Counted from the first letter of the stretch, positions 2,149 to 34,005 are shown. The stretch: DNA of 53,693 nt from a virus (IMGVR_UViG_3300035682_001576:1-53693); one strand, 5' to 3'. The notes: generated from the sequence alone by a model not told the origin. Numbers and translations: made by a program.

Positions 2149-2325
2149 TTAAAATAAAATAACAAAAGTGGTTAATACTACAATAGATAGCGCAGAACAT
2201 ACTGCGCTAATTGTTAAAAGTTTAGTCAATTTCCATGCTTTCTTTTTAGTAATTACTCTAATCCCGCCAATGCCGTAATAGAAAAAACAAAATAATACGG
2301 CAAAGGCTAATAATTATTTAATCAT
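2149..2325 (-). pseudogene. Small two-TM membrane protein with in-frame TAA at codon 4
   Basis: MIK*LLAFAVLFCFFYYGIGG...VVLTTFVILF*; its ATG overlaps the stop of the NAMPT-like gene. Confidence 0.45.
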
Positions 2326-8390: not shown

Positions 8391-8448
8391 AATAAGTAAG
8401 TATACTCTAATTAATATAATATGTCAAATGTTATGGATAAATAATTTA

Positions 8449-18004: not shown

Positions 18005-18613
18005 CTACATTTCTCTTTTAAAATTGCCATTACGAAAACCAACAGTACCACCCTCATATTCAATTCTCATGATAACATCATCAAATGAAATTGGGGCATA
18101 TTCAGTTTGTTCTACACATACACAATGATAACGAGTATCAATCTCAGTACTATACAAGATTTCTCCTGTTCTGGCATCAACACCACGAGCCTTACGAACT
18201 CGTTTTTCATGTAAATGACCATGAATATTGGTACCAAATCTACCAAGACTATCTGGGTGAATAGGTATATGACTAAGAATCATACCATCCAGTATGTGAT
18301 AACCACGTACATCTCTAAAGTATTTGGAATAATCCTTTAACTTATAGATATCATGATTACCTCTAATCAATACTTTATCACCATTAAGTCTGGGCATAAC
18401 TGCATCTAATGCCTTTTTATTAATAACAATATCACCCAAAAAATAAACTTTATCTCGTGGGCTAACAGTGGCATTAAATCTTTCTATCAAATACTCATCC
18501 ATTTCTGCTGCATCTTCAAACGGTCTCAATTTAGTCACGCCATCTGCTCTGAAAAATTGGCAAATACCTGCGTGACTAAAATGAGGGTCTGAATATAAAA
18601 ATGCCGTGGGCAT
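18005..18613 (-). CDS. Calcineurin-like metallophosphoesterase
   Basis: SDPH, LGD, GNHD, SHIP, HGHLH motifs. Confidence 0.9.
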   Translation of the reverse strand: MPTAFLYSDPHFSHAGICQFFRADGVTKLRPFEDAAEMDEYLIERFNATVSPRDKVYFLGDIVINKKALDAVMPRLNGDKVLIRGNHDIYKLKDYSKYFRDVRGYHILDGMILSHIPIHPDSLGRFGTNIHGHLHEKRVRKARGVDARTGEILYSTEIDTRYHCVCVEQTEYAPISFDDVIMRIEYEGGTVGFRNGNFKREM

Positions 18614-18623
18614 AATTTTCTCC

Positions 18624-19811
18624 TTACCCTTTAATACACATTACCTGTTTTAGAGTATGTACAATCTCAACTAAATCAGTTTGTGCAGCCATAACTTGAT
18701 CAATGTCTTTATAAGCGCCTGGAATTTCATCCAATACACCATCATCTTTACGACATTCAACACCCATAGTTTGTACTGATAAGTCCTCTAAGCTGAATAA
18801 CTTTCGAGCCCCATTACGTGAATGTTTACGACCAGCACCATGACTACATGAACAATATGAATCTTCGTTACCCTTACCTTGTACAATGAATGATTTAGCA
18901 CCCATAGAACCAGGAATGATACCCATTTGACCAGCTTTTGCAGATACAGCACCCTTACGAGTAATCCACATATCTTGACCAAAATGATTTTCAAAGTTAG
19001 TAAAGTTATGATGAGCATTTACAATTTCACCAAGAGTTTTCATCTTAGGAAACATATGAAGCAGATTTTGTAGTACAATTTGCATCATAGTATCACGATT
19101 AAGCATTGCATAATCCTGTGCCCATTGCATAGCTTCAATATACATATTGAATTCAGCCGTACCTTCATCTAACCATGCCAAATCTGAATCTACCAATTTA
19201 CGTTGTTCACGTATAGCAATTTCTTTAGCCATGTTAATAGCTACAGTACCGATTTGGTTACCAATTCCACGACTACCAGAATGTAACATAACCCAAACAC
19301 GGTTTTCGCTATCTAAACAAAGTTCAATAAAGTGATTTCCTCCACCCAAAGTACCAATTTGATTGGCAATTTTGTATGGATCAGCACGACCTAGTTTGTC
19401 TCGCAATGTCAACTTTTCCCAACGTTGAAACATTTTAGTTTCAGCTTGACGTAACTTATCTGCAGCTGCACCTTTAACTTTAATTGAACTACGGCTATGT
19501 TCATTGAATCCAACTGGAACACCACGTTCAATAGAGTTACGTAATGAAAACAATGACTCTGGTAAATCTTCGGCAGTTAAGTTAGTCATTACTGCACACA
19601 TTCCACAACCAATATCTACACCAACTGCGGCTGGTATAATAGCACCACGAGTTGGTATAACTGATCCAACAGTAGCACCCTTACCCATATGAACGTCTGG
19701 CATTACTGCCATATGTCCAGCCAAGATTGGCAATTCTGATATATTACGAATTTGATCTAGAGCGGCACGTTCTACTTCCATATCGCCGATCCACATTTTA
19801 ACGTTTTCCAT
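18624..19811 (-). CDS. rtcB: RtcB RNA ligase (tRNA repair)
   Basis: MPDVHMG, GVDIGCGM, GTLGGGNHFIE, LHSGSRG, HHN, RKGA, PGSMG, SHGAGR, DEIPGAYK; likely start MENVK. Confidence 0.96.
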   Translation of the reverse strand: MENVKMWIGDMEVERAALDQIRNISELPILAGHMAVMPDVHMGKGATVGSVIPTRGAIIPAAVGVDIGCGMCAVMTNLTAEDLPESLFSLRNSIERGVPVGFNEHSRSSIKVKGAAADKLRQAETKMFQRWEKLTLRDKLGRADPYKIANQIGTLGGGNHFIELCLDSENRVWVMLHSGSRGIGNQIGTVAINMAKEIAIREQRKLVDSDLAWLDEGTAEFNMYIEAMQWAQDYAMLNRDTMMQIVLQNLLHMFPKMKTLGEIVNAHHNFTNFENHFGQDMWITRKGAVSAKAGQMGIIPGSMGAKSFIVQGKGNEDSYCSCSHGAGRKHSRNGARKLFSLEDLSVQTMGVECRKDDGVLDEIPGAYKDIDQVMAAQTDLVEIVHTLKQVMCIKG

Positions 19812-19827
19812 TTTACTTCCTTTTATT

Positions 19828-19922
19828 TGGTAGTAGCGTAGAGATTCGAACTCTACCGTTGCAGCCCATCTGACCACTCTCCAGGACTTATAAGATCCCG
19901 CCGCACACCAGTGCTCGCTACC
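19828..19922 (-). tRNA. Non-canonical tRNA(UAU) with long variable arm and tetraloop D-arm
   Basis: Acceptor GGTAGCG/CGCTACT-ACCA; D-arm GCAC-TGGT-GTGC; loop CTTATAA; about 25-nt variable region; T-loop TTCGAAT. Confidence 0.75.
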
Positions 19923-20433: not shown

Positions 20434-20518
20434 TGGTGGAGATTACTGGGATCGAACCAGTCGTGCGCAAGCGCGGCGGATTTACAGTCCACTGCATCAC
20501 CATTGATGCTTCATCTCC
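20434..20518 (-). tRNA. tRNA-Tyr(GUA)
   Basis: Loop CTGTAAA, long variable arm. Confidence 0.92.
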
Positions 20519-21872: not shown

Positions 21873-22202
21873 TTATGTAATAGCGTATTTCTTTTCTAGA
21901 ACATTTCCTAATACTCGTGAAAATGAAGGGCGATTTAATAAAAATGTACGACCCAAGATATCACCACGTTTAACGTTTTCACTATCTTGTTTCACTATAT
22001 AACTACAGAATTTTTTACCTTTTTGCACTTTAAGTAATGGTTCACGAGCAGTAATTTTTACATTATTCTGATCTTGTTTAACAATATCATCGTCCCATTG
22101 AGCACTTTGATAACTTTGAGTTTCTATGGTTTTCTTGATATAATTCAAGTAACTATCAACTGCATTTCGTAATTCTATATCTGTGCGAAGTTCATTTGTC
22201 AT
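21873..22202 (-). CDS. Hypothetical protein
   Basis: ORF track, GGAG SD. Confidence 0.65.
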   Translation of the reverse strand: MTNELRTDIELRNAVDSYLNYIKKTIETQSYQSAQWDDDIVKQDQNNVKITAREPLLKVQKGKKFCSYIVKQDSENVKRGDILGRTFLLNRPSFSRVLGNVLEKKYAIT

Positions 22203-22766
22203 AGTAGTATCTCCTATTATTATTTAGTCATGTAACAATCACATAGACTTAATTAGTAATGTGATATACCATATTGAAACACACTTATCAGCGAATGAAA
22301 CGACTTACGATAAATGTACTTCAATATGGTTCCGAGATTTCGATCCAGTCACGGTTCTTCAGCCTCAGATTCACAACCACTGAGAGACCACTGTATTGCA
22401 CGATGACTAGTCGGCCACGATGGTAGTCCTGTATTGTTGTTACTTACCATATTGAAATACACTTACACTCCCTACGCATCCGACAACAATGCCACGCATC
22501 CAAGGCAAAATGTACTTCAATATGGCGTCTTATCGTCTGATCCTGTGGCAGCTGGTCAAAGCGACACATTCACCTATTGTAGACTTCTAGCGACTCTGTT
22601 TGGGGTCCACTGTGACTAGCAGCGACCTCCCGCCCGATCTACTATACTAACCATATTGAAACACTCTGTCATTTCAGACTATACACCCTTGCCAGATGTC
22701 AACCATAATAGGTTCCTGTCAATTCAGGTACTGTAAAACTTCTTTCATAAAGTTTTGTGCTTCAAT

Positions 22767-22868
22767 ATGGCATATCCAATAACACTCGGAATTGAACCGA
22801 AAAGACCGTAGTACAGTCTGCGACCACGCTAAATTGTTGCAACAACCTTTGTGTTAATGTGTTGATAG
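22767..22868 (-). ncRNA. tRNA-mimic RNA (extra hairpin, D-like arm, arm, T-arm)
   Basis: TAACAC/GTGTTA stem, GCG-TGGT-CGC, AGACTG/CGGTCT, TCGG-TTCAATT-CCGA; ends GCCA. Confidence 0.55.
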
Positions 22869-23051
22869 TGTCCGAGATTCCGAGCCTCGATGTACCACTT
22901 CGTGTCAGTCCCATATATGACCCACTAACAACTGATATAACCATATTGAAATACACTCTACAGGAATCGAACCTGTCAACATTGATCCATTACGGGGCAA
23001 TGCTATGTCCACCACTCAGCGTGCGCTACGCCTTGAATGTACTTCAATATG

Positions 23052-23318
23052 ATTGCTCATATCGATCTTAACGATCTCCCACTGCTTACAACTGCTTCCC
23101 AATTTCCCGTCAATCTGCACCTGTGGTCAGGCAAAGATCCTCATCGGCCCAATTTTCTAGAATTGGTGATCCTTGGGAAAGGACTGTATGGCCTAAACCT
23201 GCCATACCTCAGGCTATTAAATTTCTGGCCGGTGTTTCACGAGGTTATCTACCGGCCCCACCTCGACTTTACGGCGATTTTTCAGTCACGTGCCTTACTG
23301 GTCGCTATCTTATGTACT
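23052..23318 (-). ncRNA. Putative pseudoknotted ncRNA
   Basis: H-type pseudoknot at 23227-23265 (CGAGGT/ACCTCG interleaved with GGCCGGT/ACCGGCC) plus several hairpins. Confidence 0.55.
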
Positions 23319-23402
23319 TGGTGTGTGATGTAGGGATCGAACCTACCCGCCCTAAGGCCACTGGGTTACAACCAGCTAGAACGCCATTGTTCCATACCAC
23401 AC
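23319..23402 (-). tRNA. tRNA-Tyr(GUA), second divergent copy
   Basis: Loop TTGTAAC, variable arm GCC-TTAG-GGC, CCA. Confidence 0.8.
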
Positions 23403-23415
23403 ATTAAACTTTTAC

Positions 23416-23490
23416 TGGGGTGACTACTGAGTACCGACCTCAGGCTAACTCCTTCACAGGGAGGGGTGCTTCCATTACACTATAGCCACC
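23416..23490 (-). tRNA. tRNA-His(GUG) with atypical T-loop
   Basis: G-1/C73, loop CTGTGAA, T-loop GTCGGTA. Confidence 0.8.
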
Positions 23491-23705
23491 ATTGTTATTA
23501 GTTGTATTGTTTCGTTATAGACAACAATAACCCTATTGTCGTTTGCTTTTATCGCCCAAACATTATACAAGGACACTGGCCAGTGTTGATCTTGATTTCG
23601 TTTGGCACAACTGTATATTCGATGCCTGCAGGACAGAGCGAAAATCGCCAGTGCATTAATCTGGTGAACACAGATTTTTTCCAAAACAATACAACTAATA
23701 ACAAT
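23491..23705 (-). ncRNA. Putative ncRNA closed by a perfect 22-bp stem
   Basis: ATTGTTATTAGTTGTATTGTTT (23491-23512) is the exact reverse complement of 23684-23705. Confidence 0.55.
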
Positions 23706-23706
23706 A

Positions 23707-23950
23707 AGTGCTTTCTCCCTGCGGCGGTAACTATAGCATAGAGAAGTTGACTAACTATGCCTTCCATCCGCTCCCACAGGGAGAACTCTCGTGTTGCAAA
23801 CGCCGGTTAGGTTAGACCGCAGCTTTCGCTGAAGCAGATTCTTCACCCTTTGTTACCAAAGGCAGACCCTTGCTTGAACCACCCGTAGCCATCACAGCTA
23901 CTTCATCGTCTGGGCTCAGACTAGGCGCTGATTAGGCACCGTGCTCGTTA
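23707..23950 (-). ncRNA. Putative large GC-rich structured ncRNA
   Basis: 12-bp TTCTCCCTGTGG/CCGCAGGGAGAA helix, CAGC-GAAA-GCTG, GTAGC/GCTAC, CCTTT/AAAGG and GCATAG/CTATGC hairpins. Confidence 0.6.
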
Positions 23951-24098
23951 CTACATCATTATAAAACACATTACAGCTTGTGGCCTTTCTACCATAATAC
24001 TCGGTTCGGCAATGTGTTTTATAATGAAGACTTCAGTAGTGTCTCCCGACAGGACTACGTTTCCCAACGTAAAGAAGTCAACGTACTTCTATTGTGAT

Positions 24099-24210
24099 TT
24101 ACACAATATTTTTATGTCTTCTGCACCGATCTGTCGAACCCGTATTTCCTCAATACGGTAGAAGAGGTTGCTAGTCTTCTAAAGGGCAAAGACATAAAAA
24201 TATTATGTAA
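24099..24210 (-). ncRNA. Putative ncRNA closed by a ~22-bp stem
   Basis: TTACATAATATTTTTATGTCTT pairs with AAGACATAAAAATATTGTGTAA (one G-U). Confidence 0.5.
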
Positions 24211-24340
24211 CACAATATTGAAATACACTGAATGTAGCGATGATCGTTACCTCGGCTGAACCAGCCACTCTAGAAGTGCTGTAGTTCTCGTTCAGGCTCA
24301 ACTACTAACGGCTTACAATGTACTTCAATATTGCGTCTAA

Positions 24341-24401
24341 TTTTTAAAGAACGATTTACTTACTGAACTTCTATTATAACTGATTACTGATTTATCGTCA
24401 A
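24341..24401 (-). promoter_or_regulatory. sigma70 promoter (TTGACG-N17-TATAAT) plus boxA-like CGTTCTTTAAAAA
   Basis: -35 at 24396-24401, -10 at 24373-24378, boxA-like at 24341-24353. Confidence 0.75.
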
Positions 24402-24701
24402 GTCTTTTTTTTATATTCTACACAATATTGAAACATACTTACTAAGGGAGGACAGAAATTCTAGCTCGGCTCGTTTTCCAAGATATCGAAATCATTCTCA
24501 TTACTCTCGCCTGTTATGTCCGCCATATACCGATCCAACCCATACGGAATCCGTGGCTGGCGTTATAGTCCATGTTTCGTATGAGCAACATCTGCGACCA
24601 GACATGGGAATCATACTAACCTAACGGAAGCGATAACCTTAGTGTACTTACACAGGCATGACCCATGTACTCACAAAAATATGCTTCAATATTGCGTCTA
24701 A

Positions 24702-24764
24702 TTTTTAAAGAACGTTTACTACTTACTATACAACTATTATAACTGAATACTGATTTATTGTCAA
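24702..24764 (-). promoter_or_regulatory. sigma70 promoter (TTGACA-N17-TATAAT) plus boxA-like CGTTCTTTAAAAA
   Basis: -35 at 24759-24764, -10 at 24736-24741, boxA-like at 24702-24714; duplicate of the previous leader. Confidence 0.8.
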
Positions 24765-24769
24765 GCTTT

Positions 24770-24961
24770 TTATTCGCCGTCAATATCAATACCGAGTTCA
24801 ATCATATAGGCATCAAGAGCATCAGAATAATAATCTTCTGCCATTACTCTCATGATCAAACTACGATCAAACTTCATGCCGTGAATAACAACGGGACCTT
24901 CGGCATCTAATTTATCACAAAATTTCTCTTCTGCACATGCCATCTGATTTAGTAAATTCAT
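24770..24961 (-). CDS. Small acidic early protein
   Basis: ORF track, AAGGA SD, own promoter. Confidence 0.65.
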   Translation of the reverse strand: MNLLNQMACAEEKFCDKLDAEGPVVIHGMKFDRSLIMRVMAEDYYSDALDAYMIELGIDIDGE

Positions 24962-25096
24962 TTTTACTTCCTTTTCTCTAGTGTATGTGTATATTTTACA
25001 CTAAAATTGAATTATCGTCAAGTTATTTTGTTGTATTTTTACAACATTATTAATCATGATTTTATCTTATAATGACTTAATATTATAAATATATAT

Positions 25097-25696
25097 ATGA
25101 AATTTAATGGAAATATAAACACTTTATCAACTATTACTAATAGTGATGTTTTATCACTATTACAAATTAAACTTAATAATTATGATTGGGATCATGATCC
25201 ATGTTTATTATACAACAAAGAAAAAGATGTAGCATTTAATGATAGTTACTGTATTCAATTTACTCCAAGTTCATTGATGTGTCATATTCGTTCAACTTAT
25301 AAACAAAATTATACAGAATCCACATTAGAACTTACTAAACTTGGAGATATAATTTCATCAGAAATTCATCAATTGTTCCCAGATCATTACCATCTTAAAA
25401 GTCATTTTGTTGCTATTATCCCACATGGAAAACAAATACGACATACTGATGAATCATTTTATCATAGATATTCCAAAAGATTAGTTGTTCCTATTATTAC
25501 CACTAATTTATCATATACAAATTTTGATAATGATATATATACACTTGAAGTCGGTACAATTTATGAAATGAATAATCGTGTGCCACATTGGAGCGAAAAT
25601 AATGATGATGAGATTAGAGTATTTCTATTCATGGATTTAATTTCTCCAATAAATTTACAAATTATAAAAAATCATTATAAATATTATCATGAGTAA
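25097..25696 (+). CDS. AspH-like Fe(II)/2OG oxygenase
   Basis: RHTD...R...PIIT...EMNNRVPH..EN....RV.L. Confidence 0.75.
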   Translation: MKFNGNINTLSTITNSDVLSLLQIKLNNYDWDHDPCLLYNKEKDVAFNDSYCIQFTPSSLMCHIRSTYKQNYTESTLELTKLGDIISSEIHQLFPDHYHLKSHFVAIIPHGKQIRHTDESFYHRYSKRLVVPIITTNLSYTNFDNDIYTLEVGTIYEMNNRVPHWSENNDDEIRVFLFMDLISPINLQIIKNHYKYYHE

Positions 25697-25961
25697 AGAA
25701 AGAATTCCAACTAACATGAGACGTATTGTAATTGAACGTGATGGATTACGTTGTGTATATTGTGATATAGATTTACTTAAAAATGAAATACATTTAGATC
25801 ATGTAATACCAGAATCCAAAGGTGGGCCAACTTCAATTAGTAATTTACAAGTTACTTGTGGTAAATGTAATCTTGAAAAAGGTATTTTAACCGAAAGTGA
25901 ATTTGAAAATAAACTACGTACACGAGCATTAAACATCTTGAATAGATTAGGTTTCAAATAA
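25689..25961 (+). CDS. Small HNH endonuclease
   Basis: RDG.RCVYC...LDHVIPESKGG....NLQVTC.KCN..K. Confidence 0.88.
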   Translation: MSKERIPTNMRRIVIERDGLRCVYCDIDLLKNEIHLDHVIPESKGGPTSISNLQVTCGKCNLEKGILTESEFENKLRTRALNILNRLGFK

Positions 25962-25963
25962 TA

Positions 25964-26191
25964 TCAAATTCTACGCTTTTTCCAAGTGTAATCTTCACCA
26001 TTTGGAAGTTTACCATCTTCTATACTATCCACTCCCATTTTGCCAACTTGATTTGGATTCTCTCCTACCATGGCCACATAACTACGACCTACAGTACGCA
26101 TATTATTGACTCGTGTTAGTGCCTCTATCATTTCTAAATAATCTTCACTACGTGCTTGACCGTCTTCTTCAGTCCAATATACTTTATACAT
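25964..26191 (-). CDS. Conserved phage hypothetical protein
   Basis: ENPN.VGK.GVD...GKLP.G..Y.WKKRR. Confidence 0.75.
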   Translation of the reverse strand: MYKVYWTEEDGQARSEDYLEMIEALTRVNNMRTVGRSYVAMVGENPNQVGKMGVDSIEDGKLPNGEDYTWKKRRI

Positions 26192-26212
26192 TTCTTCTCT
26201 TTTCGCATTATA

Positions 26213-26809
26213 TTAATTATTGTATATCAACACCGCGTCATCAGCAGTTCTTTCTTTAAGTTCATATCCATTATTAATATATAGTTCTATAGTGTCATCA
26301 ATGATCTTAAGATCCGTTAATCCATTGCATTCAAATCTTATTTTTTTAGGATAATTACTTGTTGGTCTAGATTTTAAATAGTTCAACAAATGTCTTAAAA
26401 TAAAACAATCACTACCTTCGGTATCTATTTTTAAGTAATCAACTGATTCTACTGTATTATCTATGAATAATTGAGAGATAGGAATCTGTAATACGTTTTT
26501 TTCTATAGACACTAAGTGTTTATATTTTGTGTGTTGATAATGATAATACCCTACTTTATTGCATCCCTTGATCTTGTTGGTTAATTGATTTTGATAAATT
26601 ACATTGTCAGGAATATAATAAACATCAACGTAACTCTGAGAATTATCTGCACTAATAGCACAATTTATTTTCTTAACATTCTTTGGACTTGGTAAGTTAT
26701 CTAAATAAAATTTTAAAGGTTCTACAGAAATTCCCACAGTATCATCGTTGGAACCTTGAATCAATGTATCGTAATCACTAGTTCCAATTTCTATAAAATT
26801 ATAATGCAT
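26213..26809 (-). CDS. FkbM-family methyltransferase
   Basis: FIEIG...SVEP...NCAIS...LKIDTEGSD...I.FE. Confidence 0.8.
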   Translation of the reverse strand: MHYNFIEIGTSDYDTLIQGSNDDTVGISVEPLKFYLDNLPSPKNVKKINCAISADNSQSYVDVYYIPDNVIYQNQLTNKIKGCNKVGYYHYQHTKYKHLVSIEKNVLQIPISQLFIDNTVESVDYLKIDTEGSDCFILRHLLNYLKSRPTSNYPKKIRFECNGLTDLKIIDDTIELYINNGYELKERTADDAVLIYNN

Positions 26810-26872
26810 ATTTTTATCCTATATAATATAGTATATTATTTATCTGTACAAACTGTTATAGCCATTATTTAT

Positions 26873-26948
26873 TGGTGCTAACTGTTGGAATCGAACCAAC
26901 TTCAACGGTTCTTCAAACCGCCGCTATGACCACATCAGCTAAGTCAGC
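26873..26948 (-). tRNA. tRNA-Phe(GAA)
   Basis: Loop TTGAAGA, CCA. Confidence 0.88.
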
Positions 26949-26952
26949 ATGT

Positions 26953-27050
26953 TACCATATTGAAATACACTCTTATCATTATCCCAGCGTCCGGATACGG
27001 TTTAACAGGACCCAACGTCAGAGGTCAGGTGAATGTACTTCAATATGGTA
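26953..27050 (-). repeat. Stem-bracketed RNA cassette (dispersed copy) overlapping the CCA of tRNA-Val
   Basis: TACCATATTGAAGTACATTC ... GAGTGTATTTCAATATGGTA. Confidence 0.8.
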
Positions 27051-27119
27051 GGTTCTAAAAGAATCGAACTTTTGTCTACTGGATGTCGACCAGTAATTCT
27101 CCCATTGAACTAAGAACCT
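27046..27119 (-). tRNA. tRNA-Val(GAC) with C33
   Basis: Loop TCGACAT, acceptor AGGTTCT/AGAACCT-ACCA. Confidence 0.8.
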
Positions 27120-27171
27120 AATTTGCATAGAACTTGTCACATTATACGCCCTATGCAAGGGCGAGCTACTT

Positions 27172-27489
27172 TCAATACCAATAAGGCAAGTGTGGTTTTG
27201 TTTCAATTACAACATCTTCCGCTTTACCATGCATATAATTGTGTATCAATCTTTTTGAACGAGCACGATATGGCGCTTGTGAACATTCACGGCGAAACCA
27301 AGCGGGCCCATTCCAATGCATGATAAATTTGCCTGAGCGGCGCTCGGCGATTTGTTTTTTACCTTCTTTACTCTTTGGATTCAGATAGAATTTATAATGA
27401 GTGTAATGATATTCATCCATTCTTACCCATTCATAAAGTTTATCTTTGATCATATACTCATCGTGTCTAAAACGATATGTTCTACTCAT
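27172..27489 (-). CDS. Basic hypothetical protein
   Basis: MSRTYR...P.WFRR...; AAGGAG SD. Confidence 0.7.
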   Translation of the reverse strand: MSRTYRFRHDEYMIKDKLYEWVRMDEYHYTHYKFYLNPKSKEGKKQIAERRSGKFIMHWNGPAWFRRECSQAPYRARSKRLIHNYMHGKAEDVVIETKPHLPYWY

Positions 27490-27510
27490 GTATTTCTCCT
27501 TATACGTAAC

Positions 27511-27552
27511 CTAACGCATTCGGAAAAAATACCTTTCTATAAATTTAAACAT
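27511..27552 (-). CDS. Putative 13-aa leader peptide MFKFIERYFFRMR
   Basis: AGGAG SD; stop codon lies in a hairpin next to the downstream SD. Confidence 0.4.
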   Translation of the reverse strand: MFKFIERYFFRMR

Positions 27553-27567
27553 AACTACTCCTAAAAT

Positions 27568-27657
27568 TGGAGGGAAAGGTGAGATTCGAACTCACGGAGC
27601 GTTTCCACTCGACAGTTTTCAAGACTGTTGCAATAAACCGGACTCTGCCACTGACCC
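27568..27657 (-). tRNA. tRNA-Ser(UGA), two acceptor-stem mismatches
   Basis: Loop CTTGAAA, long variable arm; acceptor GGGTCAG/CTTTCCC. Confidence 0.75.
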
Positions 27658-27658
27658 A

Positions 27659-28195
27659 TTACTTACTCAAATATTTTTCAATATCTTCCATTACTAATTG
27701 AAACCCACGTTTATTAAATCTATGTGTTTCACCATCAACAATAGTAATCAAACTTGGTTTAACTTCTGTAATTAATTCACTATGATCAATAACTTCATCA
27801 TATTTGGAAAGAAAATATCTAACCATTGTTTCTGGGGGAATTATTTTTTCATATTTGTTGGCAATTTCTGATTCTACTTTTAATTCAACCAAAGTTTTAC
27901 TTGGTTCAAAACATGGATTTGCCAACCACATTTCGGCATGATATATGTCTGCTAGTTTTTTGGCATACCATGCACCCAAACTAGTACCGACAAAAACTAC
28001 TTTTCTGTATTTGTGAACACCATCAATAAGTGTAGAATCAAGTTTTATACATAATTCTTTAATTGAATGTTCGGGATCACGATGATCAATATTCCATGAT
28101 AAAACTATATCATTTGGGAATGCTGCCCCTAATTGTCTTACTTTATCAGAATTGGCATTAGAGCCAAAACCATGGAAATAAACTATTAAATTCAT
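27659..28195 (-). CDS. YqiA/YcfP-like alpha/beta hydrolase (esterase)
   Basis: HGFGS, GTSLG, NP, DEVID, HRF. Confidence 0.85.
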   Translation of the reverse strand: MNLIVYFHGFGSNANSDKVRQLGAAFPNDIVLSWNIDHRDPEHSIKELCIKLDSTLIDGVHKYRKVVFVGTSLGAWYAKKLADIYHAEMWLANPCFEPSKTLVELKVESEIANKYEKIIPPETMVRYFLSKYDEVIDHSELITEVKPSLITIVDGETHRFNKRGFQLVMEDIEKYLSK

Positions 28196-28280
28196 GTGAT
28201 CTCCTATCTACATAACTAGTGTATCATAGATAGTAATTATTGTCAAGTATTTTTTTGTTGCATTTTTACAACACTAAGAC

Positions 28281-28838
28281 TTACTTGGGATATCCCAAAC
28301 CAATTTTGCGATGTGAATATCCGCCAATATCACGATGATAATGATCTGGGGATTCTGGATCTAACTGTATTTTCTTACCAGTCAAGTTTTTAATTCGTTC
28401 TGGTTTAATAAGAGGAAAATCTTTCTTTCTAAGAATATGTTCTATTGCCCCAGAAAATTCTCCCCATGATCTTTGCATTTTCTTATCATCATCAATTATT
28501 TTCATCAAATCTGATTTGCCTTCTTTTGTACCATTAGTGGCAACAGCAATAGATTTTCTTCCATGATTTAATTTGTATATTAAAGTAGCAGTTATTACAC
28601 CATTACGCTCAACCATTTTGATTGCTGAATTAGAGATATCATTATTAATGGATTTTAATTCTTCATCTTTATCTGATATTCCCCCATAACCATTAATATC
28701 TTTATACGAGTTTTGTAACATTGTAATGAGTTGATCACGATATTTCTCACGATATTTTTCATCTTTGGGATTTATTCCAACACTAATAAATCGTTCATTG
28801 AGAACGTTTTCTTTTAGAATTTCATTGATTGCGACCAT
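28281..28838 (-). CDS. Hypothetical protein
   Basis: ORF track; likely start 5 nt after GATAAATA. Confidence 0.7.
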   Translation of the reverse strand: MVAINEILKENVLNERFISVGINPKDEKYREKYRDQLITMLQNSYKDINGYGGISDKDEELKSINNDISNSAIKMVERNGVITATLIYKLNHGRKSIAVATNGTKEGKSDLMKIIDDDKKMQRSWGEFSGAIEHILRKKDFPLIKPERIKNLTGKKIQLDPESPDHYHRDIGGYSHRKIGLGYPK

Positions 28839-28863
28839 AAATCTATTTATCACAAAACTATAA

Positions 28864-28941
28864 TGGACGTGCCGGTCAGATTCGAACTGACGGTTTTAGG
28901 GATTTGCAGTCCCTTGCATTGGGCCACTCTGCCACAGCACG
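28864..28941 (-). tRNA. tRNA-Cys(GCA)
   Basis: Loop CTGCAAA, U73-CCA. Confidence 0.92.
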
Positions 28942-28950
28942 ATATTACTT

Positions 28951-29028
28951 TGGTACCCTGTCTCAGATTTGAACTGAGAGAATTTCTCCTTTTGAGAGAG
29001 ATGACTTTGCCAATTTGTCCAACAGGGC
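28951..29028 (-). tRNA. tRNA-Leu(CAA) with short variable loop
   Basis: Loop CTCAAAA; only about 6 nt of variable region. Confidence 0.82.
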
Positions 29029-29036
29029 ATAATATT

Positions 29037-29111
29037 TGGTACTCGGTATTGGTAACGATCCAATATCTGCGCCTTATCAAGACGCTGCTAATCCATTTCA
29101 GCTAACCGAGC
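29037..29111 (-). tRNA. tRNA-Ile(GAU) with atypical T-loop
   Basis: Loop TTGATAA; T-loop ATCGTTA. Confidence 0.82.
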
Positions 29112-29120
29112 ATTAAAACT

Positions 29121-29197
29121 TGGAACCCATGGAGGAAGTCGAATCCCCAACCTTTTCGTTCGTAGCGAAGTGCTCTAATCCATTGAGCTACACGGGT
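29121..29197 (-). tRNA. tRNA-Arg(ACG)
   Basis: Loop CTACGAA. Confidence 0.88.
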
Positions 29198-29204
29198 ATA
29201 ATTA

Positions 29205-29281
29205 TGGTAGTGAAGAGTGGATTCGAACCACCGACCTTGTGAATATGAGTCACCTGCTCTAACCATCTGAGCTACATCACC
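29205..29281 (-). tRNA. tRNA-Met(CAU), elongator type (Ile2 not excluded)
   Basis: Loop CTCATAT, CCA. Confidence 0.8.
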
Positions 29282-29882
29282 ATTTTACTGTTCTTGGTAA
29301 ATCATTAATGATAATTTTAATTTCTTCCCAGTTTAGTATCCAATCTGAATACTTTCCAGGATTTTTAATTGGCATTTTTACTATGTCTAATTCTACTTCA
29401 TATCCAAGAATCTTGGGTATATTATTAATATCGTTACAAAATTCCGAATAATCAATTATTATTGTATTTTTTTGTAATTTATTATCGATAGTTTTAAAGA
29501 ATTGTACTACACGATTATAGTGATGAAAAAAATCATTTATATTCAGTATAAATGGTTTAATGATTATATTTGGTATATTATAATGTTTGAATATATGCCA
29601 ATGTCCTATATGAGGTTGAATACAAAAACTTAAAGCCGATTCAACCATATCACGAGTACTTAAGATACACTGTGTATCTTCTAAGATTAGATCAAGATCA
29701 TCTATTATATGTGTATGAACCAAATCTAGATATTTCATTGGCAAATGATTATTAATACCTGCATGATGAAACTTAAGATTATTATTATAAATATTCTGTA
29801 ATGATGCACAAATTAATCTACTACCTGTTCGTCCAGGACTTATTACTATCCAACTATCAGTATTATTAGGATATCTTTTCAT
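29277..29882 (-). CDS. Sulfotransferase-like protein
   Basis: SPGRTGS, RD..E...S, IDYSEF; start uncertain. Confidence 0.55.
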   Translation of the reverse strand: MKRYPNNTDSWIVISPGRTGSRLICASLQNIYNNNLKFHHAGINNHLPMKYLDLVHTHIIDDLDLILEDTQCILSTRDMVESALSFCIQPHIGHWHIFKHYNIPNIIIKPFILNINDFFHHYNRVVQFFKTIDNKLQKNTIIIDYSEFCNDINNIPKILGYEVELDIVKMPIKNPGKYSDWILNWEEIKIIINDLPRTVKW

Positions 29883-29890
29883 ATCTTGTA

Positions 29891-30013
29891 TTGTCATATT
29901 GAAACACACTATACAGGACTTGAACCTGTTGACCTACAAGACCACTAGGATCCGGCTATGACCACTCATATCAGCGACCGCGATGATCGCCTTGATGTAT
30001 TTCAATATGACAA
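29891..30013 (-). repeat. Stem-bracketed cassette with tRNA-mimic payload
   Basis: TTGTCATATTGAAATACAT ... GTGTGTTTCAATATGACAA enclosing TATGA-GTGG-TCATA and ACAGG-TTCAAGT-CCTGT. Confidence 0.75.
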
Positions 30014-30208
30014 CTGGTAGGGGCACAGAGACTTGAACTCTGATTTATCGGTTAAAAGCCGATTACTTTCGCCACTTAAGTTATACCCCCGTTGTTTTTC
30101 CTGCTTTCGTACAGCCTTGTTAGACTTACGATGACTACCTGCCCCTGTCTTTTTTAGTACCAAACAAACGAAGGGATTACGTTTGGGTACGGTCAGTTTT
30201 GACTTCAT
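30002..30208 (-). CDS. Small basic ArfA-like ORF reading through tRNA-Lys
   Basis: AAGGAG SD; MKSKLTVPKRNPF...KKTGAGSHRKSNK...; no stop before the tRNA 5' end at 30090. Confidence 0.55.
   Translation of the reverse strand: MKSKLTVPKRNPFVCLVLKKTGAGSHRKSNKAVRKQEKQRGYNLSGESNRLLTDKSEFKSLCPYQLSY
30015..30090 (-). tRNA. tRNA-Lys(UUU)
   Basis: Loop CTTTTAA, CCA. Confidence 0.9.
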
Positions 30209-30212
30209 TTTA

Positions 30213-30341
30213 CTACTCCTTTTCAATTTTACGACCGCTTTTGCGTGACTTCACGCCAACGGTAAACTTGACTTTCTTACCACGGCCTGCTTGAGTAACA
30301 CGGCAGTCGTGATAGCAACGCTTAGATCCATAAGCTCTCAT
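30213..30341 (-). CDS. Small basic protein (42 aa, not in ORF track)
   Basis: MRAYGSKRCYHDCRVTQAGRGKKVKFTVGVKSRKSGRKIEKE with AAGGAG SD, behind promoter 30369-30397. Confidence 0.6.
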   Translation of the reverse strand: MRAYGSKRCYHDCRVTQAGRGKKVKFTVGVKSRKSGRKIEKE

Positions 30342-30429
30342 TAATTACTCCTTTGATTCAATATAATAATTATACAATAATTATGATTTATTGTCAATTA
30401 TTTATGTGTTGTATTTTTACAACAGTATT

Positions 30430-30504
30430 TGGCGGGCACCCTAGGACTCGAACCTAGATGAATGGATTTGGAGTCCATAATCTTGCCAATTAGATGAAGC
30501 ACCC
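30430..30504 (-). tRNA. tRNA-Trp(CCA)
   Basis: Loop CTCCAAA, GCCA. Confidence 0.9.
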
Positions 30505-30519
30505 ATATGACCTATAAAC

Positions 30520-30603
30520 TGGTGCCCCAAGAGAGATTTGAACTCTCACACCTTTCGGTACTGGCTTCTAAGACCAGCGTGTCTGCCGTTCCACCATCGG
30601 GGC
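30520..30603 (-). tRNA. tRNA-Leu(UAG)
   Basis: Loop CTTAGAA, variable arm. Confidence 0.92.
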
Positions 30604-30615
30604 ATATTTAAAACT

Positions 30616-30690
30616 TGGAGCAGGATATCGGGTTCGAACCGATGACATTTTCGTTGGCAACGAAACATTCTACCACTGAATTAATCCTGC
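30616..30690 (-). tRNA. tRNA-Gly(GCC)
   Basis: Loop TTGCCAA. Confidence 0.92.
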
Positions 30691-30697
30691 TTAAAAC

Positions 30698-30773
30698 TGG
30701 TCTGAGTACAAGGATTTGAACCTTGGACGCCTGGTCCCAAACCAGGTATGTTACCAGACTACACTATACTCAG
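30698..30773 (-). tRNA. tRNA-Pro(UGG)
   Basis: Loop TTTGGGA, C1-G72. Confidence 0.92.
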
Positions 30774-30779
30774 ATGAAA

Positions 30780-32153
30780 CTACTTAACCACCCACCAACA
30801 AGCGCCAATAAATCCCACTTTAGTAAGTAATTCATTTACTGATCGTCTGACAGGTAAATGTGGATAATCATGTCCACTAATTATACCACCCTTTTTTACT
30901 TTTGGTAACCATGATATAATATCTTGTTTAACACTATCATAATCATGTGCCGCATCAATAAATACAAAATCCAAACTATTATCTAAATATGTTTCTGCAG
31001 CCTCAATACTAGACATTCTTTTAGCATTATAGTAACCTTCAACTGGTTTCATGTTTGAAATAAACACTTCATACAATTGATTATTAACTACATCCGAATC
31101 CTCAAATGATTGACCCTGTTGATGTTCTTCACTACCCTGCCAAGTATCTACACAATCAAATGTGATTGATTTGCCACTGTTGACAATTTCAACCGCCATG
31201 TAACTACTACTACGACCTTTATAACTTCCAATTTCTACAAAATGAGCGGGACCAGAAAACTTCTCTAACATCTTTCTGAGAAAAATAAAATCATGATCAT
31301 TAAAAAATCCATCAATCTTTTTATAAAAATGTGGAATATGTTTAACAACACAATTTTTATCAAATGCCAATAGAAAATCTTTTGGTAATGTATTCTTATC
31401 AAACTTGATAAATTGATTGTCTAATCTTCCAAATAAATCTTTACCCTGTTCAATAGCAGATTGAATATTTTCAATACTATTATATTGTTCTGTATTATAT
31501 TCCTGATGAGCAAAACTATTTAATTTAGTTTTAATATGTTCTACATCACCCCAATAACTTAAATGCCAACCACCATTTGAAATTCCAGATAGTGTATTTC
31601 TATTTGATCTAAACCATTGCGGACCGCGTTGTTTCATATTTTTAACAGTAGTAACAACTGATCCAGACCATGAATTAACTTGTTTCTGATTAAAGTTATA
31701 ATAAAACATATCTTGAATCAGTGAAAGTGCATATTCTTCATTTACTACATAGTTTAATTGTCTGACACTTTCTTTAATGGCAGTAATATTTGGTATTTCA
31801 TCTACATCACTAATAATAACAATATCATCATCTTTAAATAATTTAATCGCCTGAGAAATATGATTACGTTGAGCATTTTCAACCGCCCATTGTGGTGAAA
31901 ATGATTCAGTACGTTGAGATTTTATATTCCAATTATACTGACTAGCATCAATTGATAATGGAAAATATAATATTTTTTTGGAATATTTTCTATATCTGTC
32001 AATGTTATTGGCATAATTTAATGATTTAGATTTTCCACTGTGGGTGATATCACTTTCAACTATAACAAAATAGTCTACAGTATCATATAGATATTTCAAT
32101 CTACCTTCTAGAATATCATACTCATTGAAAAACATAAAACAATCTATTATCAT
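30780..32153 (-). CDS. GT17-like glycosyltransferase fused to a class I SAM methyltransferase
   Basis: N-terminal DCFMFFNE..ILE.RL, QRN, SDVDEIP, GWHLS; C-terminal VEIGSYKGRS, FIDAAHDY, GGIISGHDY. Confidence 0.85.
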   Translation of the reverse strand: MIIDCFMFFNEYDILEGRLKYLYDTVDYFVIVESDITHSGKSKSLNYANNIDRYRKYSKKILYFPLSIDASQYNWNIKSQRTESFSPQWAVENAQRNHISQAIKLFKDDDIVIISDVDEIPNITAIKESVRQLNYVVNEEYALSLIQDMFYYNFNQKQVNSWSGSVVTTVKNMKQRGPQWFRSNRNTLSGISNGGWHLSYWGDVEHIKTKLNSFAHQEYNTEQYNSIENIQSAIEQGKDLFGRLDNQFIKFDKNTLPKDFLLAFDKNCVVKHIPHFYKKIDGFFNDHDFIFLRKMLEKFSGPAHFVEIGSYKGRSSSYMAVEIVNSGKSITFDCVDTWQGSEEHQQGQSFEDSDVVNNQLYEVFISNMKPVEGYYNAKRMSSIEAAETYLDNSLDFVFIDAAHDYDSVKQDIISWLPKVKKGGIISGHDYPHLPVRRSVNELLTKVGFIGACWWVVK

Positions 32154-32170
32154 ATAATTATCTTTAATTA

Positions 32171-32249
32171 TGGAAGCGGAGGCAGGATTCGCACCTACGA
32201 TCTCTAGCTTATGAGACTAGCGGGGACGACTAGACTCCCCTACTCCGCG
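32171..32249 (-). tRNA. Initiator-like tRNA-Met(CAU), divergent
   Basis: C1 mismatch, CGCGGAG acceptor, loop CTCATAA; lacks the three G-C anticodon-stem pairs; T-loop TGCGAAT. Confidence 0.7.
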
Positions 32250-32268
32250 TCAGAACTACTATTTACTC

Positions 32269-32297
32269 AGTATAACATTGTTAAAATTAAATGTCAA
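32269..32297 (-). promoter_or_regulatory. Internal sigma70 promoter TTGACA-N17-TATACT
   Basis: Read directly upstream of the initiator-like tRNA. Confidence 0.65.
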
Positions 32298-32303
32298 TTG
32301 ATT

Positions 32304-32378
32304 TGGTGCTCTTACACAGAATCGAACTGAGATTTCTGACATACCAAGTCAGTGTTATAACCATTAAACTATAAGAGC
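32304..32378 (-). tRNA. tRNA-Thr(GGU)
   Basis: Loop TTGGTAT. Confidence 0.88.
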
Positions 32379-32385
32379 AAATATT

Positions 32386-32463
32386 TGGCATCCCCCCAAG
32401 GATTTGAACTTGGACCGCTCGGCTCCAGACCGACTACGCTACCAGATTACGCCATACGGAGAT
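32386..32463 (-). tRNA. Atypical or pseudo tRNA (UGG-centred loop with C33)
   Basis: 6-bp acceptor ATCTCC/GGGGAT, loop TCTGGAG, 8-nt T-loop, GCCA end. Confidence 0.5.
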
Positions 32464-32470
32464 AAAAACT

Positions 32471-32559
32471 TGGTGGACGAAGGTAGGACTCGAACCTACT
32501 ACAAAGCTACGAAGGCAGCATAACTCATGCTACGAGCCGTTTCCTAACGGCGTTCGCCC
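32471..32559 (-). ncRNA. tRNA-like RNA with G3-U70/A73 (Ala identity) and no canonical anticodon loop
   Basis: GGGCGAA/TTCGTCC-ACCA; 6-bp D-stem GCCGTT-AGGA-AACGGC; arm GTAGCAT-GAGTT-ATGCTGC; T-arm GTAGG-TTCGAGT-CCTAC. Confidence 0.7.
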
Positions 32560-32567
32560 ATAAAACT

Positions 32568-32642
32568 TGGTACTGCATACGGGTTACGATCCCGTCTGGT
32601 CACCTTGAAAGGGTGATGACCTCACCAGAAGTCCAATGCAGC
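32568..32642 (-). tRNA. tRNA-Glu(UUC), second copy with atypical T-loop
   Basis: Loop CTTTCAA; T-loop ATCGTAA. Confidence 0.82.
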
Positions 32643-32724
32643 ATTGATCTGTGCCTTACTCCTTAAGTCACTTCCACTACTTTTATAAGTAGGGCGAGTT
32701 AGGCTAATCCATTATGGGCGAATT

Positions 32725-32801
32725 TGGCAGGGATAGTTGGATTCGAACCAACGATACTGATTTCAAAGACCAGTGCCTTAGACCAACTAGGCGATATCCC
32801 A
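32725..32801 (-). tRNA. tRNA-Gln(UUG)
   Basis: Loop CTTTGAA, GCCA. Confidence 0.9.
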
Positions 32802-32806
32802 ACAAA

Positions 32807-33313
32807 CTATAAAATATCTTTCCATCTGATTACTAACGATTCGTTGTAAACAGACCTCTTACCTTTTCTTGCATTTTCTCTACGAGGAAGATATTGTAAA
32901 TTGTCTTGATGATGTAATCCACCGTTGGCTAATGCAACAATATGATCAACTTGATAACCATCAGGAGTTGACTCGTATATTAATTTAATCAATACTAAAT
33001 CTGCATCTGGAGATATAGCGTTTTTCTTTTTTGCTCTGTAAGCATTAACTTTTGCCTTGTTCCCAGATTTCTTATGCTCTTCGGATACTCTTCCTCTTAG
33101 ATCCCAATATAATTTTTTCTTTTCTGATAACATGTCTAAGACATCTTGTTGAAAGGTTTTTCCTTTGAACCCGCTAACTTTACCTTTGTTGGCAATACTT
33201 TTTTTAAGTTTACTATCTTCTGTAAATTTTCTACTATTAGCACATGATCTTGAACAAAATTTCCCAGATCCAAAAGATCCATCGTGATCTACATTGCATT
33301 TAATACATAACAT
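32807..33313 (-). CDS. HNH endonuclease
   Basis: YQVDHIVA..GG.HH..NLQYL...EN.RK; N-terminal KFCSRSCANSR. Confidence 0.85.
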   Translation of the reverse strand: MLCIKCNVDHDGSFGSGKFCSRSCANSRKFTEDSKLKKSIANKGKVSGFKGKTFQQDVLDMLSEKKKLYWDLRGRVSEEHKKSGNKAKVNAYRAKKKNAISPDADLVLIKLIYESTPDGYQVDHIVALANGGLHHQDNLQYLPRRENARKGKRSVYNESLVIRWKDIL

Positions 33314-33368
33314 AAGTTATTCTCCCAACTGTATTTATACAATCGAACCTACGTTATAAATTACTTTT

Positions 33369-33446
33369 TGGCTGTCCGGTTTGGAATCGAACCAAACTTT
33401 ATACTGATTAACAGTCAGTCGCATACACCTTGCTTGCTCCCGGACA
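33369..33446 (-). tRNA. tRNA-Asn(GUU)
   Basis: Loop CTGTTAA, GCCA. Confidence 0.85.
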
Positions 33447-33453
33447 ATAAATT

Positions 33454-33528
33454 TGGTGGACCGTAAGGGAATCGAACCCTTGCCTCATGCTTGCAAAGCA
33501 CATGTGCTACCATTATCACTAACAGCCC
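33454..33528 (-). tRNA. tRNA-Ala(UGC)
   Basis: Loop TTTGCAA, G3-U70. Confidence 0.92.
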
Positions 33529-33534
33529 ATATTA

Positions 33535-33617
33535 ACAATTTATTGAACACACTATACAATTAAACCGTTGCAATGCCATTGCTGATTCAGGTTCGTGTAA
33601 TGCGCTCAATAAATTGT
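33535..33617 (-). repeat. Stem-bracketed cassette, divergent covarying copy
   Basis: ACAATTTATTGAGCGCATT ... AGTGTGTTCAATAAATTGT. Confidence 0.7.
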
Positions 33618-33747
33618 AGTGGCTGTCCCACTACTGTCCATCTTACTTTTGCCGTTACCGCCAGCAATTTCAACTCCGGAACCCCGCCCATTTAGTGTTT
33701 TATTATAGTGATTCACACGGCTCTCGTTGCCTACATTCACTTACTAC

Positions 33748-33782
33748 AAAAACAAAAAACCTCAGACTTTTGATCTGAGGTT
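33748..33782 (-). terminator. Intrinsic terminator (attenuator)
   Basis: AACCTCAGA-TCAAAAG-TCTGAGGTT followed by TTTTGTTTTT. Confidence 0.85.
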
Positions 33783-33810
33783 CTTAGAATTTTGGTGTTA
33801 GATTATCAAA

Positions 33811-34005
33811 TTACGATACACTACACCCTTCTAGAACCTCAGTACTGCCGCGATCTTTCCCACAAATTTCTGTGGCCGGATTACTGGCTGTATTCTGATT
33901 ATGTTGTTCTGATGCCAATACATAAAAACTGGGCCAATAACCTTCCGCGGATGTTCTAAACATCTCTAAAGTTGGTATTGAGCGAATGAGTTTTGTATTC
34001 ATCAT
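33811..34005 (-). CDS. Putative attenuator leader peptide (64 aa, all 20 amino acids)
   Basis: Leaderless start 6 nt after TATAAT; its last codons carry the antiterminator strand CTGAGGTTCTAGAA. Confidence 0.75.
   Translation of the reverse strand: MMNTKLIRSIPTLEMFRTSAEGYWPSFYVLASEQHNQNTASNPATEICGKDRGSTEVLEGCSVS

Follow-up and report, generated by a model that had tools for sequence, protein, structure and literature searches.

In a fragment of a large lake phage we find ten short non-coding RNA cassettes, each closed by a helix of about 19 base pairs (bp) whose arms recur from cassette to cassette around payloads that are mostly unrelated. The window, that is the whole stretch of DNA analysed, is the complete IMG/VR virus record IMGVR_UViG_3300035682_001576, which is 53,693 bases long and has a CheckV completeness of 18% and an overall GC content of 0.33. 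Its 32 tRNA genes are all on the minus strand and span 9.6-33.5 kb, it encodes an rIIA-like protein with T4-type phages as top matches, and a run search showed that the stretch 22200-24800 is present in 23 lake-water metagenome DNA runs. The window is therefore part of a large T4-like phage from fresh water, whose tRNA array contains the cassettes.

The original prediction had placed ten arm pairs on the minus strand of this array, and all ten are present at the predicted coordinates, eight with a canonical helix and two with a divergent one (Table 1). With up to two mismatches allowed, the arm pattern CCATATTGAARYRC matches the window 21 times, against 3.76 matches expected, a number that was reached in 0 of 100 shuffles; 16 of the 21 matches form eight convergent pairs at the predicted positions. 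An inverted-repeat scan independently lists the same ten arm pairs, those of the divergent cassettes (23956-24027 and 33535-33617) among them. For the helix alone we built a covariance model (R1) from 30 short cassettes of which two are window cassettes; it detects nine of the ten on the minus strand with E ≤ 9e-4, and the plus-strand score is lower each time. The tenth, at 24421-24696, has an interior of 240 nucleotides (nt), which exceeds the span of R1, and its arms were found by the pattern and by the inverted-repeat scan. The closing helix is also part of the minimum-energy fold in all ten. The divergent cassettes, which score 26.3 and 29.7 bits with R1, carry compensated changes in the outer helix, a correction to the proposal of one conserved helix. 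As had been proposed, the interiors are richer in GC than the genome (0.37-0.56 for the window payloads) and non-coding, with an ATG frame of at least 25 codons in 2 of 103 payloads family-wide.

The consensus of the helix is R-CCAUAUUGAAGUACAUU paired with AGUGUAUUUCAAUAUGG-U. The arms are those originally described, extended by one more outer pair (R at -1 with U at +1), which brings the total to about 19 bp. In 44 of the 46 tRNA-bearing sources, all except L025 and L118 (L numbers designate further viral loci), arm mismatches read as G.U on the same strand that carries the tRNAs. Helix positions were counted in a set with the strand assigned from the tRNAs only, which comprises 93 non-identical cassettes from 45 sources after L025, L118, tRNA-less sources and identical copies were dropped. 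Positions -1 to 18 are paired in 79-93 of the 93 cells each, with no bulges or extrahelical bases, and the helix is an uninterrupted double-stranded stem of about two turns formed by distant flanks, as is typical of RNase III stems. Both ends (positions 1-5 and 13-17) are nearly invariant, reading C C A U A, and A C A U U with A G U G U, and wobble pairs are the most frequent pairs at two positions, G.U at position 11 (51/93) and U.G at position 16 (71/93).

Over positions 1-17, the 93 cassettes contain 1395 Watson-Crick, 163 G.U, 11 A.C and 12 other cells on the tRNA strand. Since a DNA palindrome would give equal numbers of G.T and A.C, the ratio of 163:11 points to an RNA helix, in agreement with the earlier reading of the minus-strand mismatches as G-U pairs. 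The prediction that the arms differ between copies and keep pairing is borne out as well: in alignment A1, 96.8% of the cells are paired compared with 91.2% after shuffling, nine pairs are altered on both sides, the covariation score is reached by 0 of 500 shuffles, and slid registers pair at 30-49%. The 15-mer seed with which the family was collected fixes much of the arm sequence, and the arms were therefore re-detected by their conserved ends alone. In this set, 12 of 182 cells at the seven middle positions are unpaired, against 38.6 ± 3.3 in shuffled data (minimum 23 in 1000 shuffles), and fully compensated middle variants exist, for example UUCUAGC/GCUAGAA. These patterns indicate that the arms form an RNA helix on the tRNA-sense strand, with conserved ends and a covarying middle. 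RNA is a better reading than a hairpin in single-stranded DNA, because the cassettes share the orientation of the tRNAs, promoter-like sites are found and the payloads contain tRNA motifs.

The same helix is widespread among viral contigs and occurs in many uncultured phages. A scan of IMG/VR with one 15-mer of the 5' arm gave at least 111 loci, and the family counts rest on the matches listed. In 57 sources (56 listed loci and the window) there are 120 convergent arm pairs, 40-400 nt apart, 115 of which were kept for counts; in the 56 further loci these pairs are almost always within tRNA arrays. Building a covariance model of the helix and searching phage genomes with it had been put forward as a check of the prediction; with E ≤ 0.01 and matches on either strand counted, R1 gives 250 matches, which are spread over 100 of the 111 loci listed and include diverged copies missed by the pattern. 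Five carrier genomes were searched whole (three of the five at least 90% complete, two of the five complete), and each has its arms concentrated in a single region, with 0-1 matches to a reversed control pattern. A two-arm pattern restricted to gaps of 45-75 nt, and hence to small payloads, occurs in three contigs among 185,579 bacterial and archaeal species genomes, all of them in freshwater metagenome-assembled genomes. A blastn search of 22200-24800 against 50,697 phage records gave no match, the 17-nt arms being too short for blastn. The cultured Stenotrophomonas phage DLP_6, which has the best match to the PF04308 protein of the window and a similar tRNA array, contains no R1 match and no inverted repeat of at least 14 nt. 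With Rfam, only tRNAs were found on the cassettes (in the window at the gathering score, in 22000-34000 by E-value, and in six further loci).

The cassettes often adjoin tRNA ends. In 23 of the 115, the CCA of the upstream tRNA forms helix positions 1-3, and in 10 the downstream tRNA begins at the last GG of the helix; 82 have no predicted tRNA within 15 nt of either side. In the window, the four tandem cassettes at 22268-23053 have no ARAGORN tRNA between them, while cassettes 6 and 7, likewise with no adjoining tRNA, start about 40 nt past sigma-70-type promoter-like sites and have a common leader, which many loci conserve. The spacers of the tandem cassettes (22331-22446, 22526-22650 and 22771-22941, minus strand) are 116-171 nt long, non-coding and partly conserved elsewhere. 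One of them contains a T-arm-like hairpin (22801-22785), and neither ARAGORN nor Rfam reports a tRNA in the spacers.

The payloads of the 115 cassettes are 21-236 nt long and form 70 classes, and no motif is common to them apart from a T-loop, present in 18 of the 115. The inverted arm pairs and uneven payload lengths differ from the direct repeats and even spacers of CRISPR arrays, a geometry that the original prediction had already set aside. Class 0 is the largest, with 12 members including the window payloads at 22941-23052 and 29894-30010, and combines a D-loop-like stretch and a hairpin in the middle with a T-arm that directly precedes the 3' arm. The stem of this hairpin covaries; its loop ranges from 4 to 13 nt, and it is therefore not an anticodon arm. 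Compensatory changes are found in the internal stems of classes 0 and 3. ARAGORN reports no tRNA in any cassette, and one payload (L072 2619-2713) scores 31.4 bits on the Rfam tRNA model. We considered and rejected the possibility that the payloads are tRNAs, given the lack of any ARAGORN call and of a cloverleaf whose anticodon loop has 7 nt. As a group, the payloads are structured RNAs of diverse kinds, some of them tRNA-like, and they probably act in the interaction between phage and host. That the interiors are mostly unrelated, as first stated, is correct with respect to this diversity, but two of them, at 22942-23051 and 29891-30013, belong as paralogues to a single tRNA-like class.

Comparison of close relatives reveals that payloads are replaced between conserved arms. 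The window and its relative L099 are about 99% identical over the promoter, the leader, both arms and the downstream flank, yet the payload of cassette 6 (24213-24333) is unalignable with the L099 payload found between the same arms (83 nt versus 50 nt). Among 26 cross-locus pairs of cassettes in which both 60-nt flanks reach an identity of 85% or more, the payloads are unrelated in 6, show 82% identity in 1 and show at least 95% identity in 19, which supports the modular design that had been proposed. L015 and L009 differ by the insertion or deletion of a two-cassette block, which is bounded by 3' arms. Metagenome contigs also connect arms over other interiors, although the mapping of relatives is an alternative source of such joints. 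Because unrelated payloads lie between identical arms and a block indel is bounded by arms, the arms act also as recombination break points, at which payloads are exchanged.

Helices of other sequence also bracket RNAs in these arrays. In the carrier loci, mismatch-free bracket helices of at least 15 bp number 231 in sense and 89 in antisense orientation, compared with 5 in shuffles, and the non-canonical ones are distributed as 74 on the tRNA-sense strand versus 48 antisense. One non-canonical type, a helix of about 20 bp around a loop of about 58 nt, recurs in L011, L013, L030, L035 and L040. In the window, the region 23474-23936 (minus strand) corresponds to a non-coding RNA of about 460 nt that is conserved in L009, L064 and L065 with 83-87% identity; its consensus fold comprises 142 pairs, of which 17 show compensatory change, and Rfam gives no match. 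Its 3' half is enclosed by a helix of 22-24 bp that is unlike the cassette helix.

We tentatively favour the view of the helix as a stem that serves in processing and stabilisation and is cut by a double-strand RNase of the host, although we would stop just short of calling this probable. The cassettes would then be non-coding RNA modules co-transcribed with the phage tRNAs from minus-strand promoter-like sites of the sigma-70 type, and the helix would serve in the same way as the stems around 16S and 23S rRNA. It would be cut by a double-strand-specific endoribonuclease of the host, most likely RNase III, and the payload would be freed as a stem-capped stable small RNA; the same cut would separate neighbouring tRNAs, whose CCA or first GG often belongs to the base of the helix. 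At the DNA level, the identical arms provide short homologies through which payloads are swapped, added or deleted by recombination among related phages. The processing enzyme would be that of the host, since RNase III and double-stranded RNA-binding domain (dsRBD) genes are found in 0 of the 5 carrier genomes. According to one review, RNase III of Escherichia coli participates in T4 tRNA maturation and cuts the stems of rRNA operons (PMC4810235). The covarying middle of the helix, together with the many helix sequences in use, favours an enzyme that reads structure over a sequence-specific loading handle.

Several points weigh against such a processing stem. The near-invariant ends and the preferred G.U pairs at positions 11 and 16 exceed what RNase III would need from structure only, and they could reflect a sequence-specific partner. 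About 19 bp is at the short end of the range for bacterial RNase III substrates. One RNA-library run (5% of sampled words) yielded three short contigs, which carry no end information, and stretches that it leaves uncovered are uninformative. One of the three is an adapter-flanked insert of 143 nt, 22464-22606, which is identical to the window and uncut across a 5' arm; this insert stops one base short of a 3' arm, and it is a single fragment that may represent DNA carry-over or a precursor. In addition, the 15-mer seed favours the canonical sequence in the sample. Altogether, the earlier reading of the cassettes as a modular small-RNA system is partly supported.

Other explanations account for some of these observations. 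The helix could be a sequence-specific ribonucleoprotein handle similar to that of Y RNAs, to which a dedicated protein binds while the payload acts as effector or adaptor, cleavage being unnecessary. The invariance of the helix ends and the wobble preferences are in line with this, and T and D elements in the payloads recall YrlA, whose closing stem binds Ro60 (PMC4201824). However, we consider such a handle unlikely: TROVE/Ro60 (PF05731) is found in 0 of the 5 carrier genomes and not in the window, in a search in which the positive controls were detected, and no Y RNA of Rfam matches (at the gathering score in the window, at E ≤ 5, and at E ≤ 1 in six loci). No tested protein is both universal and specific, as PF04308 occurs in 4 of the 5 carriers and is missing from one complete genome, and phrog_547 occurs in all five, yet this phosphoesterase is common in phages and in one genome is encoded far from the cassettes. 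The free, compensated variation of the helix middle, and the bracketing of RNAs in the same arrays by other helix sequences, also argue against a protein that recognises one sequence. If, instead, the helices were pure punctuation that only separates and matures neighbouring tRNAs, the payloads would be functionless filler that is free to evolve. The sharing of CCA or GG with adjacent tRNAs, the free replacement of payloads between close relatives, and the existence of about 70 classes with no common motif beyond the T-loop agree with this, but we regard it as improbable, because several payload classes are kept across loci with compensated internal stems (classes 0 and 3), two cassettes directly follow promoter-like sites with no adjoining tRNA, the four tandem cassettes are not interspersed with ARAGORN tRNAs, and most cassettes of the family have no predicted tRNA nearby.

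The arms might also belong to a DNA-level element, such as the ends of MITEs (miniature inverted-repeat transposable elements), attC-like hairpins in single-stranded DNA or targets of homing endonucleases, with the RNA helix being incidental. Arms that bound payload swaps and block indels, contigs that link arms across differing interiors and three HNH endonuclease open reading frames (ORFs) within the array would be compatible with this, and hairpins in single-stranded DNA are, according to PMC5737381, indistinguishable from RNA by sequence alone. Against it stand the excess of G.U over A.C on the tRNA-sense strand, the absence of extrahelical bases, the internal covariation and tRNA motifs of the payloads, and the restriction of the arms to tRNA arrays, in the orientation of the tRNAs. 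The interiors are also unrelated, unlike those of a MITE family, which has one interior. MITE ends with target-site duplications had been named in advance as an outcome that would overturn the RNA reading; such duplications are no more frequent than expected by chance at the cassette ends (3-mers in 1 of 103 cassettes versus 1.4 expected, 4-mers and longer in 0 of 103). A DNA element is thus quite improbable in our view. Lastly, a nuclease could cut both arms and RtcB could join the ends, producing circular payloads and a spliced flank in the manner of archaeal bulge-helix-bulge sites. An RtcB gene and an adjoining metallophosphoesterase gene are indeed located inside the tRNA array of the window, but RtcB is found in 0 of the 5 other carrier genomes, two of them complete, and among locus flanks only in that of the near-identical L099. 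The helix has no bulges, in contrast to the two 3-nt bulges around a 4-bp helix of the archaeal motif, and the RNA-library run gave no back-joined contig, though its contigs would be unable to reveal one. Excision followed by ligation is therefore very hard to credit.

Beyond processing, it is conceivable, if doubtful, that the cassettes amount to an 'RNA integron', one universal helix scaffold that both expresses and shuffles a rapidly changing set of small effector RNAs, with co-infecting phages trading counter-defence RNAs at the arms; the payloads are structured, unrelated at the same site in near-identical phages, and within tRNA arrays, which is what makes the idea conceivable. Phage tRNA arrays may counter tRNA-targeting defences. 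On this rather speculative reading, the effectors could be tRNA mimics, decoys for defences that cut tRNAs or sense RNA, or antitoxin-like RNAs.

Table 1 Cassettes, other bracketed RNAs and promoter-like sites of the window
Feature	Position	Strand	Description	Support
Cassette 1	22268..22330	-	canonical helix; 27-nt payload forming one long hairpin	R1 60.5 bits, E 9.5e-12; fold; repeat I6
Cassette 2	22446..22526	-	canonical helix; payload class 6, common to L015 and L079	R1 62.7 bits
Cassette 3	22650..22771	-	canonical helix (GAAGCAC/GUGUUUC); payload of 84 nt with several hairpins; L027 has a copy with 98% identity	R1 33.6 bits
Cassette 4	22940..23053	-	class 0 tRNA-like payload; T-arm directly ahead of 3' arm, D-loop-like stretch	R1 52.7 bits; alifold
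Bracketed RNA	23491..23705	-	different closing helix of 22-24 bp, 100% complementary; internal covariation	repeat I3
Cassette 5	23955..24028	-	divergent helix, 17 bp, 100% complementary	R1 26.3 bits, E 9e-4; repeat I12
Bracketed RNA	24103..24206	-	third helix sequence	repeat I1; weak R1 match, 10.8 bits
Cassette 6	24212..24334	-	about 40 nt past promoter-like site; different payload in close relative L099	R1 50.0 bits
Promoter-like site, sigma-70 type	24373..24401	-	same leader as the site at 24736..24764; ahead of cassette 6	11/12
Cassette 7	24421..24696	-	240-nt payload, identity 1.0 with L099; after the 12/12 promoter-like site	pattern; repeat I2; fold
Promoter-like site, sigma-70 type	24736..24764	-	conserved leader; ahead of cassette 7	12/12
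Cassette 8	26954..27049	-	between tRNA-Val (27046-27119) and tRNA-Phe (26873-26948); CCA of tRNA-Val forms helix positions 1-3	R1 55.6 bits
Cassette 9	29893..30011	-	tRNA-like payload, class 0 subgroup; 4 nt past tRNA-Lys	R1 44.3 bits
Cassette 10	33537..33615	-	divergent helix	R1 29.7 bits minus versus 9.6 plus; repeat I5

Among the neighbouring genes, an RtcB RNA ligase (PF01139, E 3.4e-125) is encoded at 18624-19877 and adjoins a metallophosphoesterase (phrog_547), the pair spanning 18005-19877 inside the tRNA array. Three HNH endonuclease-like ORFs lie among the tRNAs, at 9113-9646, 16452-16988 and 32807-33313, and a PF04308 (YkuK/DUF458, RNase H-like) protein is encoded at 7044-7535, all of these on the minus strand. 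The PF04308 protein is found in the flanks of 15 cassette loci, and many cultured phages carry PF04308 too. A weak R1 match within the PF04308 gene, at 7188-7235 on the plus strand (21.7 bits, E 0.01), is probably due to chance. Rfam gives two tRNA matches that ARAGORN does not report, at 23419-23489 and 20437-20518 (minus strand; 43.3 and 36 bits). A small basic ORF at 30005-30208 (minus strand), for which we found no Pfam and no PDB match, spans tRNA-Lys (30015-30090) with no stop before the tRNA, and excision of the tRNA would therefore leave a message that lacks a stop codon. The product of this ORF might conceivably resemble ribosome-rescue factors. Further minus-strand genes, at 2322-3818, 14393-15409, 40023-40955 and 48070-48987, encode a nicotinamide phosphoribosyltransferase-like protein, two radical SAM proteins and a weakly QueC-like protein. 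Elsewhere, the cassette-bearing locus L013 contains, at 1-180 on the minus strand, a partial GOLLD RNA that is truncated by the locus end (71.7 bits) and has an embedded tRNA, and the cassette-bearing locus L064 contains, at 8258-8602 on the minus strand, a permuted transfer-messenger RNA of the betaproteobacterial type.

Phage tRNA arrays are usually annotated as tRNAs and empty gaps, and the gaps here hold a large family of structured RNAs that share one portable helix and whose payloads turn over fast among close relatives. Should the helix be a processing stem, it would provide a simple rule for dismantling the long transcripts of phage tRNA arrays, and it may help to explain rnaC and rnaD of phage T4. 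If the payloads are effectors, the arrays would be the RNA-level counterpart of protein anti-defence islands, and the helix would, moreover, lend itself naturally to use as a scaffold in the expression of stable small RNAs.

Parts of this arrangement resemble known systems, but the reuse of one helix around dozens of swappable payloads in tRNA arrays is apparently undescribed, as we found no description of a portable RNA helix of this kind in phage tRNA arrays in Rfam or in the literature searched. A 2023 set of 8,495 unnamed RNA candidates from IMG/VR (PMC10690425) may contain single cassettes.

Like the attC sites of integrons, the cassette arms are inverted repeats around a variable centre, arranged in arrays and used for cassette exchange; attC sites, however, are imperfect repeats that act as single-stranded DNA with extrahelical bases and an integrase, whereas the phage helix is perfect, biased towards the RNA sense and placed among tRNAs. 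The Correia elements of Neisseria (CREE/nemis) are MITEs with a conserved core and carry target duplications, while the cassettes have unrelated interiors and no target duplications. Like the cassettes, Correia elements are short and bounded by inverted repeats; they are transcribed and can be bound or cut by RNase III (PMC2649163). PeSL motifs, through which modules are shuffled in T4-type phages, are similar in that these short, conserved repeats with a regulatory role lie at the break points where closely related T4-type genomes differ by insertions, deletions or replacements (PMC4122927, PMC2839356). They consist of a promoter and a terminator-like hairpin that flank ORFs, in contrast to the cassette repeat, an RNA helix whose two halves enclose a non-coding payload.

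Bacterial Y RNAs (YrlA/YrlB, bound by Ro60/Rsr) have a comparable plan, described in PMC4201824, with a closing stem made of both ends and a variable module that mimics tRNA. The same text reports several paralogues per genome, and phages that also carry the family (PMC4201824). The cassette phages differ in having no TROVE gene in the five carriers or the window and no Rfam match to Y RNAs, and the plan is shared unevenly, with a closing stem in all cassettes and a T-loop motif in just 18 of 115 payloads. In YrlA, according to that source (PMC4201824), the T and D arms are separated by a closed acceptor-like stem-loop, whereas class 0 stacks the T-arm on the closing helix.

The T4 RNAs rnaC and rnaD (species 1 and 2) are also stable RNAs other than tRNAs in the tRNA cluster of a T4-type phage, and rnaC resembles class 0 in its paired termini and in the T-arm directly before its 3' end. 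To our knowledge, no function has been assigned to either. T4 has two such RNAs, neither of them with the 19-bp helix of the cassettes (no R1 search of T4 was made). The RNase III stems of rRNA are likewise long-range flank helices of about two turns that enclose a structured stable RNA in a polycistronic, tRNA-bearing transcript, and cutting would release the neighbours. Where the cassettes differ is in the phage helix itself, whose cleavage is presumed and of which one sequence serves dozens of unrelated small payloads in many phages.

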